Of a stretch of 64,000 nt of DNA, positions 13,874 to 48,956 are shown in pieces. Origin of the DNA: an uncultured Clostridia bacterium (GTDB lineage Bacteria > Bacillota > Clostridia > Christensenellales > UBA1242); assembly GCA_944381175.1 (NCBI GenBank), contig CALWKD010000020.1:22888-86887 (forward strand). The letters run 5' to 3'. The position numbers and the translations under genes are program-made. Below the pieces are notes generated by a model. It was not told where the DNA came from and did no database searches. It saw nothing but the letters and a program-made list of their open reading frames with translations. Position 1 is the stretch's first letter; each line of letters starts with the position of its first letter.

Positions 13874-15706
13874 ATGGAACAAAACAACATAAGAAATGTG
13901 GCTATTATTGCACACGTTGACCACGGCAAGACTTCGCTCGTCAACGAAATGCTTAAACAAGGAAATGTATTCAGAGAAAATCAGGTGGTTGAGGACAGGG
14001 TTATGGACTCAAACGCACTTGAAAGAGAAAGGGGCATAACAATTCTTTCAAAAAATACCTCTTGCTTTTTTGACGGCGTGAAAATCAATGTGGTGGACAC
14101 TCCTGGACACGCTGATTTCGGCGGAGAAGTTGAGAGAGTCTTGAAGATGGTCGATGGTGTGCTTTTGGTAGTTGATGCTTACGAGGGACCAATGCCTCAA
14201 ACCAGATTTGTTTTGGAAAAGGCACTCTCATTGAAACTTAAGGTCATTGTCGTTATAAACAAGATTGACAGACCAGACGCAAGAGTGAAGGAAGTTGTTG
14301 ATGAGGTCTTGGAACTGTTTTTGGAACTTGATGCAGATGAGGAACAACTCAATTCTCCTTTTGTTTTCGCTTCAGCAAGACAGGGAATTGCATCCACCGA
14401 CCCAAACACTTTGGGAAAAGATATGAAACCACTGTTTGAAACGATAATAAGTTACATCCCAGCGCCAGAGGGAAGTGCGAGCGAACCTTTGAAAATGCTT
14501 ATCTCTTCTGCAGAACACAATGATTATGTTGGAAAACTTGCTGTTGGGAAGATTGAAAGAGGAACAATTAAGGTTGGGCAAAATGTCGTTGTGTGCAACT
14601 ATCACGAGCAAGACAAAAAGAAAAAGTCCAAGATTGTCAGTCTGTTTGTTTATGAAGGGCTCAAGCGTGTGCCTGTCGAAAGTGCAAGCGTGGGCGAAAT
14701 TGTTTGCGTTGCAGGACTTGAAGATGTCCAAATCGGCGACACAATTTGTGATGAGAACAACATTGAACCAATCGAATTTGTCAAGATTGCAGAGCCAAGC
14801 GTTGAGATGACATTTATGGTTAATGACAGTCCGTTTGCTGGTCAAGAAGGCAAATTTGTCACCTCAAGACACCTTAGAGACAGGCTTTACAAAGAGGCTG
14901 TCAAAGATTTGTCACTCAGAGTTGAGGACGGAGACACCGCTGACAAGTTTAGGGTTAGAGGCAGAGGCGAAATGCATCTTTCAATTCTTATTGAGAATAT
15001 GAGAAGAGACGGATATGAGTTTCAAGTTAGCCAGCCGAAAGTTTTGATTAAAGAGATTGATGGCGTCAAATGCGAGCCTGTTGACAGACTTTTTCTTGAT
15101 GTTCCAGAGGACTGCGTCGGCACTGTTATGAACAAAATGGGCGTGCGAAAAGGTGATTTGCAAAATATGACACCGCACGGAAGCAGAATGAGAATGGAAT
15201 TTTTGATTCCTTCTCGTGGACTTTTTGGCTTCAAGTCGGAATTTTTGACAGATACAAGAGGAGAGGGTGTGATAAACTCAATCTTCTTTGAATACCAACC
15301 ATACAAGGGCGAGATAAACAGAAGAGAGGTTGGCTCTTTGATTGCGCACGAGACGGGCAAAGCGATTGTTTATGGACTTTACAACGCGCAGGAGAGGGGG
15401 GAACTCTTCATCGGGCCTGGCGTTCCAGTTTATGGTGGGATGGTCGTTGGGAGCAACCCAAAAGGCGGAGATATTGTCGTGAATGTCTGCAAAGAGAAAC
15501 ATCTTTCAAACTGCCGTTCTTCTGGGGCTGACGAGGCACTCCGACTTACTCCTCCAAGAGTTATGAGTCTTGAAGATTGCATAGAGTTTTTGGGAGATGA
15601 TGAATATCTCGAAGTGACTCCAAAATCAATTCGCATAAGAAAAATCATTCTTGACCACAATATGCGTTTGCGTGAGAGAGGCAAGGCAATTCGTGGCGAA
15701 ATTTAG
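13874..15706 (+). CDS. typA: Ribosome-associated GTPase TypA/BipA
   Basis: [42 protein letters not shown] and [11 protein letters not shown] motifs; 610 aa. Confidence 0.97.
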
Positions 15707-45484: not shown

Positions 45485-46296
45485 AAGTTGTTGGAGTGAA
45501 ATTCAAAAACAGCAACCATATATATTCTTTTGACCCGAACGGGCTTGATCTCAAAATTGGAGATTATGTTTTGGTGGATTCAGAGAAAGGGGTTGACCTT
45601 GGTTGCATAATCAAAGAAAGGGAGATGATTGATGCAAGCACGCTTGTGTCGGCTCTGAAAAAGGTTGTGAAAGTGGCTTCGCCTGAGATTGTCAAAAAGG
45701 CAGAAAAGTATGACAAAGAGGCAGAAAAACTCTATCCGATTGTGAAAAAAATCGTGAAAGAGGAAAAATTGGATATGAAGATTGTCAAGGTTGAGGCAAG
45801 TTATGACAACTCAAGATACATCATAAACTTCACCTCGGAAAACCGAGTGGACTTTCGTGAACTTGTCAAAAAACTTGCAGTCGAACTCAAAAAGCGTGTG
45901 GAACTCCGCCAAATTGGAAGTCGTGACGAAGTCAGAATGCTCGGCGGTTTTGGACCTTGCGGAAAGATTTGTTGCTGTGTGCAGAATATGGGAGAGTTTG
46001 ACCACGTTTCAATGAAAATGGCAAAGACCCAAAATTTGTCGTTGAACCCAGCAAGCATAAGCGGGCTTTGTGGGAAACTTATGTGTTGCATTGCATATGA
46101 AAATCCTGTTTACCAAGAGGCTCTGAAAGTTATGCCAAAGGTTGGCTCAATGGTGAGCACAAAGGACGGCAAGGGAAGTGTCGTTTACAACAATTTGTTG
46201 AAGAGAGAAGTCGACGTCAAATTTGTGAACGGAGACGATTTTGAGGTCAAAACCTATCCACTTTCGGAAGTTTCGTTTAGGAAGGAAGAAAAATGA
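45475..46296 (+). CDS. yaaT: PSP1-domain protein YaaT/RicT
   Basis: RVDFRELVK, ELRQIGSRD, GPCGKICCC, ISGLCGKLMCC Fe-S cysteine motifs. Confidence 0.93.
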   Translation: MQIEVVGVKFKNSNHIYSFDPNGLDLKIGDYVLVDSEKGVDLGCIIKEREMIDASTLVSALKKVVKVASPEIVKKAEKYDKEAEKLYPIVKKIVKEEKLDMKIVKVEASYDNSRYIINFTSENRVDFRELVKKLAVELKKRVELRQIGSRDEVRMLGGFGPCGKICCCVQNMGEFDHVSMKMAKTQNLSLNPASISGLCGKLMCCIAYENPVYQEALKVMPKVGSMVSTKDGKGSVVYNNLLKREVDVKFVNGDDFEVKTYPLSEVSFRKEEK

Positions 46297-47018
46297 AATT
46301 AAGTCAAGGCGAGAGAATGGAAGATTTGCAGTGCAAGGGACTTAAAATAATTCAAAATAAAGACCTTTACACCTTCACATCGGACAGCATAATTTTGGCA
46401 AATTTTGTTAAGATAAAGAAAGGTGAAACCGCGGTGGAGATTGGAGCAGGGGGCGGAGTTATTTCAATCTTGGTGCAGGCAAAAAATGAAGCCGAACGCA
46501 TTTTTGCCTTTGAAATTCAACCCGAAATGTTTGATTTGTGCAAGAAAAACATCGAATTAAATGGTCTGCAAGAAAAAATAACTCCAATTTGTGATGATGT
46601 TAAGAATTTTGAAAATTATCTCAAGGAAGAGAGTGTGGATGTCGTTTTTTCAAATCCTCCGTTTTACAAGGAGACAAATTTCCCACAAAGCGAAGTGAAG
46701 AAAATTGCAAAAGAGGAAATTTGCTTGCCGATTGCTGATTTTGTCTCTGTGGCGTCAAAAATGCTTAAAAATGGTGGAAAGTTTTATTGCGTTTATGGGG
46801 CAGAGCGGTCTTGCGAACTTATTGCTCTCTGCCAAAGACACAATCTTGCGGTCAAAGAGTTGTTTTTCACCGAAAATGGAAAAGGAAAGGTGCAACTTGT
46901 CGTGCTAAAATGCGTCAAAAATGGAAAAAATGGAGTCAAAGTCCATCCAAATCTTGCTACTAACGATGAAAATGGCAATTATTTGGAAGCATTGCACACA
47001 AAATATGTTGTTGAATAA
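46293..47018 (+). CDS. yabB: tRNA (adenine-N6) methyltransferase, YabB/TrmN6 family
   Basis: IIQ...FTSDSIIL, EIGAGGG SAM motif, NPPF motif; ATGA-type overlap with yaaT. Confidence 0.85.
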   Translation: MKLSQGERMEDLQCKGLKIIQNKDLYTFTSDSIILANFVKIKKGETAVEIGAGGGVISILVQAKNEAERIFAFEIQPEMFDLCKKNIELNGLQEKITPICDDVKNFENYLKEESVDVVFSNPPFYKETNFPQSEVKKIAKEEICLPIADFVSVASKMLKNGGKFYCVYGAERSCELIALCQRHNLAVKELFFTENGKGKVQLVVLKCVKNGKNGVKVHPNLATNDENGNYLEALHTKYVVE

Positions 47019-47033
47019 GAAAAGGTCATATTT

Positions 47034-47948
47034 TTATGACCTTTCTATTTTTAAGATTTTCACTTTTTTATAAATAATAGAATTTTCTGGTTTGTATGTG
47101 ACGGTTTCACCCACACCTTTCCCGAGCAATGCTTTGCCAAGAGGGCTTTTGTCGCTTATTTCACCTTTTGAATACTGAGCGTTTGATTTTACCTCTTCTT
47201 TATAGGTTCTTTTGCTGTTTTTTGAGTGATTTCCTGTCCAAGTTGGAGAATAGGTTATTGTGGACTCAATTATCTTGACGGAAAATGTTTCTTCCGTGTC
47301 AAGTGCTTCAAGCAAAACTCTGTCACCAATCTTGACGCAAAGTGTAGGTTTTGGAGATTTTTTCTCCCAAGGTGGTGCAGTTGTGGTGGTTTGGGACAAG
47401 ATAAAGTTGATAGGGTTTTTGTGGTCGTAATCGGAATTGTTAAGTCTCTTTTTCGGCGTATTCAACAATTCATCTATGTATTCAAAATCTTTGTAGTTCG
47501 AGGAAGTTTTGATTTTATTCGCATCTTTATTTTCTTTCTTATTGACATCATAAAAAGTCGGAATTTTTGGTGATTTTTTAGTGCTTTTTGAAGTTAGATC
47601 TTTGCCCTTGAGACCTTTTTGGTATTCATCTATTCTATTTTTATATTCTTCCAAAGTTAAATTGTTTTCATAAAGCAACTGCTCAACTCTCTCACATAAT
47701 TTATGATATTTGTTTATTTTTGGCTCAAATTGCTGTATTATCTCATCGCCTTCTAATATGTAAAATCCAACATTATTTTCATTTAACTGTTGGATGACGA
47801 ATGGAAGTTGTTTATCTGTAAATCCAACCGAAAGTTTGCGATTGAACACAAAGAGTTTATATTTGCAAAGAAAAGTAATAATAATCGCGTCATAGTCATA
47901 AGCATTATACCATTCATTTCTTTTGACAATCTTCATTTTGTTTCGCAT
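47034..47948 (-). CDS. Orphan fusion: N-terminal MutS-domain-I-like region + Lys-rich linker + GreA/GreB C-terminal domain
   Basis: N-term WYNAYDYDAIII..L..YKL...VGF...L..VI..L; C-term VKIGDRV...ISDKSPLGKALLGKGVGETV..VKILKIE. ATG 47948 after AAGGAG. Confidence 0.7.
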   Translation of the reverse strand: MRNKMKIVKRNEWYNAYDYDAIIITFLCKYKLFVFNRKLSVGFTDKQLPFVIQQLNENNVGFYILEGDEIIQQFEPKINKYHKLCERVEQLLYENNLTLEEYKNRIDEYQKGLKGKDLTSKSTKKSPKIPTFYDVNKKENKDANKIKTSSNYKDFEYIDELLNTPKKRLNNSDYDHKNPINFILSQTTTTAPPWEKKSPKPTLCVKIGDRVLLEALDTEETFSVKIIESTITYSPTWTGNHSKNSKRTYKEEVKSNAQYSKGEISDKSPLGKALLGKGVGETVTYKPENSIIYKKVKILKIERS

Positions 47949-47966
47949 ACGCAACTCCTTACAGGA

Positions 47967-47994
47967 ATTATAATGCGGGGGGGGGAGTTGTCAA
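47967..47994 (-). promoter_or_regulatory. Consensus sigma-A promoter with a C9 (G9 on + strand) tract in the spacer
   Basis: Minus strand reads TTGACA-ACTCCCCCCCCCGCAT-TATAAT (16-nt spacer); G run at 47977-47985. Confidence 0.85.
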
Positions 47995-48101
47995 GAAAAT
48001 AAAAATAAAATTTCAAAAATTTTCAAAATAGTCAAAAAAGTTAATAATTATTTTGTTATATTGATAAATTTATAGTAAAATAGTGGAAAGTGGAGGGTTT
48101 T

Positions 48102-48956
48102 ATGAAAATTTCAGTCACTGCAGAAAGCACAATCGACTTGACTAAGGAACTTTTGGAAAAATATCAAATTTCCACTCTTCCGTTTTTGGTTATTTTGGGA
48201 GACAAAGAGTTTAAAGACGGCGAGATTTGCTCAACCGATATTTTTAAATTTGTTGAGGAAAATAAAATTTTGCCAAAGACCTCAGCAATAAATAAACAAA
48301 CTTACAAAGATTTTTTTGCTGAGCAACTGAAAGAGAGCGATGCGGTGGTGCATATCAGTCTTTCCAGTCAGATGTCGAGTTCTTGCCAAAATGCCAAAGA
48401 TGCCGCAAGCGAACTTGAAAATGTCTTTGTTGTGGACTCGCTTTCACTTTCGACAGGAATTGCTCTCCTTGCAATTTACGCACGGGAACTTGCACAGCAA
48501 GGACTAAACGCGGAAGAAATTTTCAAAAAAGTCTCCGAAAGAGTGCCTTATGTGCAAGCAAGTTTTGTCATTGAAAGGCTTGACTATTTGTATAAAGGTG
48601 GCCGTTGCAGTGCCTTGGCATATTTTGGTGCAAATTTAATGAAAATTCGACCTCAGATTATCGTTAAACAAGGAAAGATGAGTTCTTACAAAAAATACAG
48701 GGGAAGTATGGACAAAGTTGTCGAAAATTATTGCAAAGACACTTTGGAAGAATTTAACACTCCAGACCGCTCTGTCGCTTTTTTGACTTACACAACTGCG
48801 ACTGAAAAAATGGTTGACGAAGCGAGAAAAGCCTTGGAGAGTGCTGGCTTTAAAAATATTTATGAGACTAGAGCGGGTGCAACAATTTCCAGCCATTGTG
48901 GTGAACATACTTTGGGAATTTTGTATATAAATGACGGAGAAAAATTGCAAAAATAA
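48102..48956 (+). CDS. degV: DegV/FakB-family fatty-acid-binding protein
   Basis: ESTIDL, PKTS, SLSSQMSS, VVDSLSLSTG, KGGR, ISSHCG; ATG after GGAGG. Confidence 0.92.
   Translation: MKISVTAESTIDLTKELLEKYQISTLPFLVILGDKEFKDGEICSTDIFKFVEENKILPKTSAINKQTYKDFFAEQLKESDAVVHISLSSQMSSSCQNAKDAASELENVFVVDSLSLSTGIALLAIYARELAQQGLNAEEIFKKVSERVPYVQASFVIERLDYLYKGGRCSALAYFGANLMKIRPQIIVKQGKMSSYKKYRGSMDKVVENYCKDTLEEFNTPDRSVAFLTYTTATEKMVDEARKALESAGFKNIYETRAGATISSHCGEHTLGILYINDGEKLQK

Follow-up and report, generated by a model that had tools for sequence, protein, structure and literature searches.

A C9 tract in the promoter spacer of an orphan gene as a likely phase-variable element, and a class of such promoters across a genus of gut Clostridia

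Results

A C9 tract between perfect promoter hexamers

The window studied here is a stretch of 64,000 nt that forms part of contig C20 of an uncultured chicken-gut Clostridia genome (G000; 1.08 Mb in 21 contigs, 38.5% G+C, completeness given as 97.7%). Coordinates are those of the window unless a contig is named. On its minus strand, direct reading gives the order TTGACA-ACT-C9-GCAT-TATAAT, followed by TCCTGT, AAGGAG, TTGCGT and the ATG (47948-47946) of an orphan gene of 304 aa (open reading frame (ORF) at 47034..47948, minus strand), whose product is predicted to join a MutS-domain-I-like part to a GreA/GreB-type domain (MutS-I/Gre-C). The -35 hexamer TTGACA lies at 47989..47994 and the -10 hexamer TATAAT, without a TG extension, at 47967..47972. 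The 16-nt spacer between them (47973..47988) consists of ACT (47988-47986), the C9 homopolymer that we presume to be the slippage tract (47977..47985; G9 on the plus strand) and GCAT (47976-47973). A Shine-Dalgarno sequence, AAGGAG, occupies 47955..47960 on the same strand, 6 nt upstream of the ATG. A first-pass annotation of the window, made from the letters alone, had described this anatomy, and its description is exact to the base.

In a consensus scan the focal promoter matches at 12 of 12 hexamer positions and is the sole such site in 46900-48300. The C9 run thus has the structure expected of a promoter-spacer homopolymer, lying within the spacer of a perfect hexamer pair, 29 nt upstream of the ATG. 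From the spacing to the -10 box (about 7 nt past it), we infer a transcription start near 47960, which would place AAGGAG at, within or adjoining the 5' end of the mRNA and leave a leader of only about 12 nt.

TTGACA/TATAAT pairs that match the consensus in at least 11 of 12 positions occur in G000 13 times with a spacer of 15 nt, 30 times with 16 nt, 117 times with 17 nt and 42 times with 18 nt. The peak at 17 nt indicates that the polymerase of this organism has the usual preference for a 17-nt spacer, so that the focal spacer is one nucleotide short and C10 would give the optimal length. This agrees with the earlier proposal that C10 is the optimal allele.

Long G/C tracts across the genome

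Is the focal tract a singular feature? The first-pass annotation had noticed no other long G/C run in the window; this holds for the 64 kb, where no other run exceeds 6 nt, and does not extend to the genome, where ten runs of 8-9 nt are present. By length, G000 contains 190 G/C runs of 5 nt, one of 6, none of 7, one of 8, nine of 9 and none longer, while an independent and identically distributed (i.i.d.) composition model predicts 377, 73, 14, 2.8 and 0.54 runs of 5, 6, 7, 8 and 9 nt. Runs of 9 nt are therefore enriched about 17-fold (9 seen, 0.54 expected), and by this run-length expectation the focal C9 run is not due to chance. Runs of the intermediate lengths of 6-7 nt, with one seen against 87 expected, are purged from the genome. 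The sole 6-nt run of the whole genome is a G6 in the window, at 15396-15401.

Only three of the ten long tracts fall within long ORFs, leaving seven in non-coding DNA (binomial P=6e-5, with a non-coding share of about 13% of the DNA taken from a crude ORF mask); four of these, the focal one included, lie inside TTGACA/TAnAAT spacers of 15-17 nt. The tract at C11:12294 (TTGACA-AAT-C9-GTGT-TACAAT, spacer 16) is upstream of a 174-aa protein without a Pfam match, and that at C17:102541 (TTGACA-AT-C9-GTGT-TACAAT, spacer 15) is upstream of a 12-codon ORF, with a 172-aa ORF farther downstream that has a sub-threshold Pfam match to DUF4116. At C12:7539 (TTGACA-GC-G9-AGATTG-TAAAAT, spacer 17) the tract precedes the gene of a 774-aa BspA-type leucine-rich-repeat (LRR) protein with a signal-peptide-like N-terminus.

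Two further G9 tracts, at C14:9433-9441 and C20:7556-7564, are each followed by the common motif ATTTTGATATCCT upstream of two lipoprotein genes (lipoboxes LSGC and LTAC, respectively), and both stand directly 5' of the common TGATATCCT motif. We note that ATTTTGATATCCT resembles a TGnTATCCT extended -10 element and that TATCCT follows the TTGACA/TTGACG boxes at distances of 19 and 22 nt; with such distances, these two tracts may affect something besides simple -35/-10 spacing. The seventh tract outside ORFs, a G9 at C19:16462-16470, lies in the leader of a gene for a presumably secreted protein of 1586 aa, whose N-terminus is signal-peptide-like; TACAAT stands 17 nt upstream of the tract, and AGGA-ATG follows it directly. 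An in-frame TTG upstream would translate this tract as glycines, and a switch at this site could be transcriptional or translational. The three intragenic tracts are in-frame G9 runs in a gene of the serine-hydrolase family and in a gene for an AMP-binding enzyme, and the sole G8 of the genome (C6:9370-9377), which divides a gene for a membrane-anchored protein into pieces of 101 and 471 aa.

An excess of long tracts, a shortage of intermediate lengths and an association with surface or variable genes together form the pattern of a phasome. Loss of mismatch repair was considered as the source of the tracts and rejected: G000 has an intact MutS, with an open frame of 873 aa, and an intact MutL of 671 aa, and the tracts are thus not a by-product of repair loss.

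Tract-bearing promoters in the genus

We extended the scan for poly-G/C tracts in promoter spacers, which the first-pass annotation had suggested for the genome, to 81 genomes of the genus (0.7-1.5 Mb). At least one C8/G8 run is present in 74 of them, with tract lengths from 8 to 13. The pattern TTGACA-N1-4-C8+-N3-9-TANAAT gave 112 matches, two of them nested double counts, in 38 of the 81 genomes and up to 13 in a single genome, and the G version gave 36 matches in 16 genomes. Together these are about 148 sites, set against none for a control in which the pattern was read backwards, in both the C and the G version; this outcome favours the earlier proposal. Ten of the 112 matches lie at most 500 nt from the first base of their contig (e.g. 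G086:C46:30, G081:C22:58 and G012:C87:73), which would fit assemblies that break at heterogeneous tracts. The genes behind 30 genus loci (31 sites) encode lipoproteins, membrane-anchored proteins and cytoplasmic proteins.

Outside the genus the promoter class is rare. An order-level draw of 151 genomes gave matches in 3 of 146 genomes from outside the genus, one match each, and in 3 of the 5 genus members drawn. A scan of species representatives for the C9/TATAAT form gave at least 126 loci; among the 80 matches listed, most carry labels such as uncultured Clostridia, Eubacteriales or Christensenellaceae and animal guts as the origin, with Mucispirillum as a second group and a few scattered phyla. 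Mucispirillum (Deferribacterota) has many TTGACA-N-C9-N-TATAAT sites among the matches listed (L061, L062, L067-L069, L071, L074, L077 and L081, and further L085, L094, L105, L106, L110, L117, L122 and L125), which suggests that it is an independent second lineage with poly-C in promoter spacers.

These scans bear on one rival explanation of the focal run, namely that it arose by chance or as a technical artefact, a poly-G error of sequencing or assembly. Illumina chemistry is prone to poly-G problems, and all tracts of the G000 assembly are near one length, as an artefact might produce. Such an error would have had to recur in independent runs from other studies, in which the tract is also present, and in the 38 independent genus assemblies that share the architecture, while producing no control match, nearly sparing the 146 other genomes of the order and yielding lengths from 8 to 13 in relatives. 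We therefore regard this explanation as scarcely credible.

Changes in tract length

Alleles of the focal tract were read from Logan contigs, not from reads, of four other chicken-gut runs (X2, X4, X5 and X6). In X5, which comes from another study, one contig (depth 3) that spans 47809-48000 has one base fewer at 47977 and thus carries G8. In X6 a contig spanning 47838-47989, at a depth of 3.3, aligns without a gap and carries G9. The contigs of X4 break inside the tract, one ending at 47984 and another starting at 47978, and X2 contributes only short pieces (19-37 nt), with the tract not covered. These few low-depth contigs give a hint of length polymorphism at the focal site. The first-pass annotation had listed alleles of different length among the checks of its proposal; a G8 in one X5 contig beside the G9 of X6 leans in its favour, as a hint from low-depth contigs rather than a measurement. 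Among metagenome contigs of the Joint Genome Institute (JGI), a search with the exact flanks and a free tract length returned 0 stretches, and a protein-based scan with the orphan protein found no relative.

Changes in length were also found at other tracts. The frame of the 471-aa ORF of the split gene on contig C6 is open back across the G8, and one additional G would fuse it with the 101-aa ORF. Indeed, the 90%-identity cluster of this gene holds both states: its short members are three of 101 aa, one of 83 aa and three of 471 aa, and other assemblies contribute three members of 572 aa and one of 554 aa. In the alignment the long forms read ...SYDVGGGIYGYI... and the short forms ...SYDVGGGFTDILM-stop, with the divergence exactly at the tract, which the long forms translate straight through as GGG. 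Homologues in further species are mostly 555-595 aa long, some of them with PF07388, and one is named at its source as an alpha-2,8-polysialyltransferase family protein; the product appears glycosyltransferase-like by these sequence matches.

Promoter tracts also differ in length. The promoter of a 244-aa lipoprotein gene has identical flanks (TTGACAAAT...GTTTTATAAT) in three species and carries C9 in G090, C10 in G084 and C8+T in G070. Paralogous promoters within one genome, again with the same flanks, differ by one C in G086, G028 and G003.

A variable site beside the methyltransferase gene

The orphan gene lies between two plus-strand genes. A methyltransferase gene (46293..47018; Pfam MTS/TRM5-type matches) converges on its 3' end, with a predicted terminator-like hairpin from the consensus scan (47021..47044, plus strand) between the two convergent genes, and with holB- and PSP1-type genes (Pfam) upstream of the methyltransferase gene. 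The methyltransferase gene is given the provisional label 'yabB-like', independent of the searches. On the other side, a divergent gene of the DegV family (48102..48956, plus strand; ORF and Pfam) has promoter-like sites at 48020-48048 and 48053-48081 in the consensus scan, beyond the tract. A role of the G9 in the DegV leader was set aside, since these sites are downstream of the tract, as was a G-quadruplex formed by the G9, for which a single G9 is in general insufficient. Rfam on 47700-48300 returned a snoR72 match alone, at 28.6 bits against a threshold of 43 bits, which we take as chance.

Fourteen loci with a methyltransferase orthologue were compared (L181-L194, G000 included). In four of them (G000, G018, G008 and G001) the methyltransferase gene is followed downstream by a convergently oriented gene that has a C-tract promoter. 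G018 has two tandem units, each beginning TATTGACAACT-C9-GTGTTA, and the tracts of G008 and G001 are C10 and C9. By orthologue search, the genes of G018, G008 and G001 are unrelated to the focal orphan. At the other ten loci no such tract was found at that place. Elsewhere the methyltransferase region runs directly into two Gate-domain genes, and DegV, which is at this hot spot in G000, was not seen there in several relatives. The methyltransferase gene is thus a conserved anchor of a variable site.

The occurrence of unrelated genes behind near-identical C9/C10 promoters at these 4 of 14 loci could also mean that the tract is a junction of gene-cassette turnover by recombination or insertion, with promoter and orphan as a mobile unit and with a homopolymer that serves or results from recombination instead of tuning expression, or that the tract acts mainly on DegV; the lack of an orthologue of the orphan in 60 relatives would agree with a cassette. 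No repeats, integrase or transposase were seen at the site, in an analysis in which no search was aimed at them. A scar would not explain a tract placed exactly between perfect boxes, and the promoter-like sites of DegV are 35-70 nt past the tract. We consider a junction very unlikely as the whole explanation; it would moreover be compatible with phase variation and no replacement for it.

The orphan protein

Residues 243-302 of the orphan match the GreA/GreB C-terminal domain (Pfam PF01272, E=1.4e-12). On the N-terminus, Pfam MutS_I gave no match even at E<=10. Residues 1-125 are nearest to MutS-domain-I clusters in the ESM Atlas (0.94, 194/256 features). An exhaustive HMMER search gave 40 representatives at E<=0.001, of which two (323 and 312 aa, 28-30% identity) match over the full length and the remainder match either the C-terminal or the N-terminal part. 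Twelve of these remote homologues were scanned with Pfam, and seven of the twelve match the N-terminal part of the orphan in their best stretch. MutS_I was found at E<=0.01 in six of the twelve, in four of them above the Pfam cut-off, and these four belong to the seven N-terminal-matching homologues. A further one of the twelve, P0154 (211 aa), combines a sub-threshold MutS_I match with a Gre domain.

An AlphaFold model, for which 17 sequences were aligned, shows two confident domains, 1-115 and 200-304, mostly with a predicted local distance difference test (pLDDT) score >90, and residues 116-197 are modelled as a disordered linker. The best Foldseek matches of the model in the Protein Data Bank (PDB) are GreA, Gfh1, GreB and the RNA-polymerase-interacting protein 3bmb, and the model also matches domain I of MutS/MSH with a root-mean-square deviation (rmsd) of 1.4-2.4 A over 67-81 columns. 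The orphan is thus, as modelled, a MutS-domain-I-like N-terminus joined to a GreA/GreB-type C-terminal domain. This sustains the MutS-I/Gre fusion label of the first-pass annotation, the Gre-C part by Pfam and the MutS-I part by language-model neighbours, remote homologues and predicted fold. The model contains the C-terminal RNA-polymerase-binding domain of Gre proteins and lacks their N-terminal antiparallel coiled coil with its acidic tip, in whose place stands an alpha/beta domain of MutS-I type; since the coiled coil is missing, the protein is not a Gre factor.

No orthologue was found in 60 relatives (36 of the same genus, 24 others), which gave Gre-domain matches near E=1e-4 only, and among 5.8 billion proteins the orphan matches its own cluster only. 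Two of the four members of this cluster are 300 aa long rather than 304 and may have been called from the second ATG, at 47936. A search of viral contigs with the orphan protein found no relative, and in PHROGs and PADLOC the orphan and three further tract-driven genes had no match.

Discussion

Here, we found a C9 homopolymer exactly between the hexamers of a perfect promoter, and we consider it likely that this tract is a phase-variable promoter spacer that changes by slipped-strand mispairing. In the proposed mechanism, C9 would be a hypermutable simple-sequence tract that separates the perfect boxes of a sigma-A-type promoter as part of its spacer, and slipped-strand mispairing during replication would gain or lose one C. 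Each such change would alter both the distance and the angle between the boxes, with spacers of 15 nt for C8, 16 nt for C9, 17 nt for C10 and 18 nt for C11, and would make transcription of the orphan stochastic and heritable per lineage. The predicted output would be maximal with C10, reduced with C9 and C11 and low with C8; the dependence of expression on tract length is taken here from general promoter knowledge, and the switching rate and the reversibility are likewise inferred. Because its hexamers are perfect, the C9 promoter is probably still active, and the tract would act as a rheostat more than as an on/off switch. The focal locus would then be one of about ten contingency loci in G000, with a promoter class that is expanded in the genus.

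Several observations weigh against this account. The main one that a simple spacing model leaves unexplained is that tract-bearing promoters cluster at spacers of 15-16 nt: the 31 genus sites include 4 at 14 nt, 9 at 15, 11 at 16 and 2 at 17, and the 126 loci of the wide scan, among the matches listed, include 51 at 15 nt, 46 at 16 and 12 at 17. On our reading, promoters with spacers of 15-16 nt rest one or two steps short of the optimum; alternatively, the simple spacing rule fails for tract-bearing promoters. A perfect promoter with a 16-nt spacer may already be strong, limiting the dynamic range, and with MutS and MutL intact there is no repair defect to raise slippage. Moreover, the G8 at the focal locus comes from a single depth-3 contig. 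Finally, 9 of the 10 tracts in G000 and, among the matches listed, 110 of the 126 promoter tracts of the wide scan (C>=9) are exactly 9 nt long. This uniformity is tighter than free drift predicts, and an element of fixed length fits it as well.

Such an element could bind a regulator that recognises poly-C/poly-G or give the spacer a structural feature; the orphan and surface genes behind it would form a regulon, and the observed length changes would be occasional mutations and no adaptive switch. Besides the uniform length, it would account for the stereotyped order of -35 box, about 3 nt, C run, G, 2-3 nt and -10 box, and for the bias in orientation, with 112 matches for C and 36 for G. It would not lead one to expect a coding tract that toggles the reading frame between assemblies of one 90% cluster, nor orthologous and paralogous promoters that are one C apart with identical flanks. 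Furthermore, the genome-wide purging of 6-7-nt runs is a signature of selection on mutability, and no candidate regulator was identified. For these reasons we hold a fixed-length element to be rather unlikely, and prefer slippage within the spacer.

What could be gained by switching the orphan? We speculate that the protein tethers polymerase to mismatched or looped DNA. It is also conceivable, if improbable, that it is itself a phase-variable modulator of phase variation, either competing with MutS at slipped intermediates or recruiting polymerase to them. If so, the C9 promoter would stochastically set a global property, either transcription behaviour or the slippage rate at all other tracts. 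As a broader part of this improbable reading, the genus of uncultured gut Clostridia would run a phasome based largely on promoters, for which we found no description in the literature searched.

More generally, in this genus of bacteria with roughly 1-Mb genomes, a single genome has up to 13 such promoters, ahead of lipoproteins, surface proteins and fast-turning orphans. If the tracts switch as proposed, single consensus assemblies would mask expression states, gene presence would not equal expression in these organisms, and interactions with the host or with phages may follow stochastic switches.

Phase variation through promoter-spacer homopolymers is textbook knowledge for Neisseria, Bordetella and mycoplasmas; to our knowledge, it has hardly been considered for commensal gut Clostridia that are represented by metagenomes only. 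The literature on such tracts that we found covers Neisseria, Campylobacter, Helicobacter, Bordetella, Mycobacterium, Propionibacterium and mycoplasmas. In open full text, with subscription journals outside the coverage, we found nothing on this Clostridia lineage and nothing linking Mucispirillum to homopolymeric tracts or phase variation, which is weak evidence that the subject is absent from print. The type of mechanism is already known; the lineage-wide repertoire of such promoters was, within this coverage, previously unremarked.

A close likeness exists to Neisseria meningitidis (porA, fetA, opc), where a G/C homopolymer of at least 8 nt between the -35 and -10 boxes sets transcription by its repeat number. 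For the polyC tract in the core promoter of fetA, 6C is reported to be non-variable, 8-14C to be phase-variable and 11C to confer intermediate expression (PMC13293289). Neisseria differs in being a Gram-negative pathogen whose switched products are outer-membrane proteins and whose tract lengths are broader, whereas the focal system belongs to an uncultured gut Clostridia of about 1 Mb and has perfect hexamers, tracts that are almost all of 8-9 nt and a cytoplasmic orphan as its product.

Campylobacter jejuni resembles G000 as an AT-rich, small chicken-gut genome whose long G/C tracts form a discrete set, and G9 is also the commonest tract length in that species. Its tracts are mostly intragenic and it is not known to have MutS/MutL-type repair, whereas in G000 most tracts are in promoters and both MutS and MutL are present. 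One report describes its poly-G/C phasome as comprising intergenic as well as intragenic tracts (PMC8355987).

A likeness also exists between the vlp genes of Mycoplasma hyorhinis and the two lipoprotein genes of G000 with a common G9 and a conserved -10 region. The vlp genes form a lipoprotein family in a reduced genome, in which the length of a spacer homopolymer decides expression. They differ in that their tracts are poly-A and the lineage is another one, and G000 uses code 11. In Bordetella pertussis, the fim tract sets the spacing to an activator site and is not part of a consensus -35/-10 spacer. The promoter poly-C tracts (fim) of this species are reported to vary in length (PMC1891110).

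For the protein itself, the comparison is with Gre factors, Gfh1 and Rnk, with which it shares a C-terminal domain of the GreA_GreB family. In place of the coiled coil by which Gre factors reach the active site, the orphan has, according to the model, a MutS-domain-I fold and a disordered linker of 80 residues.
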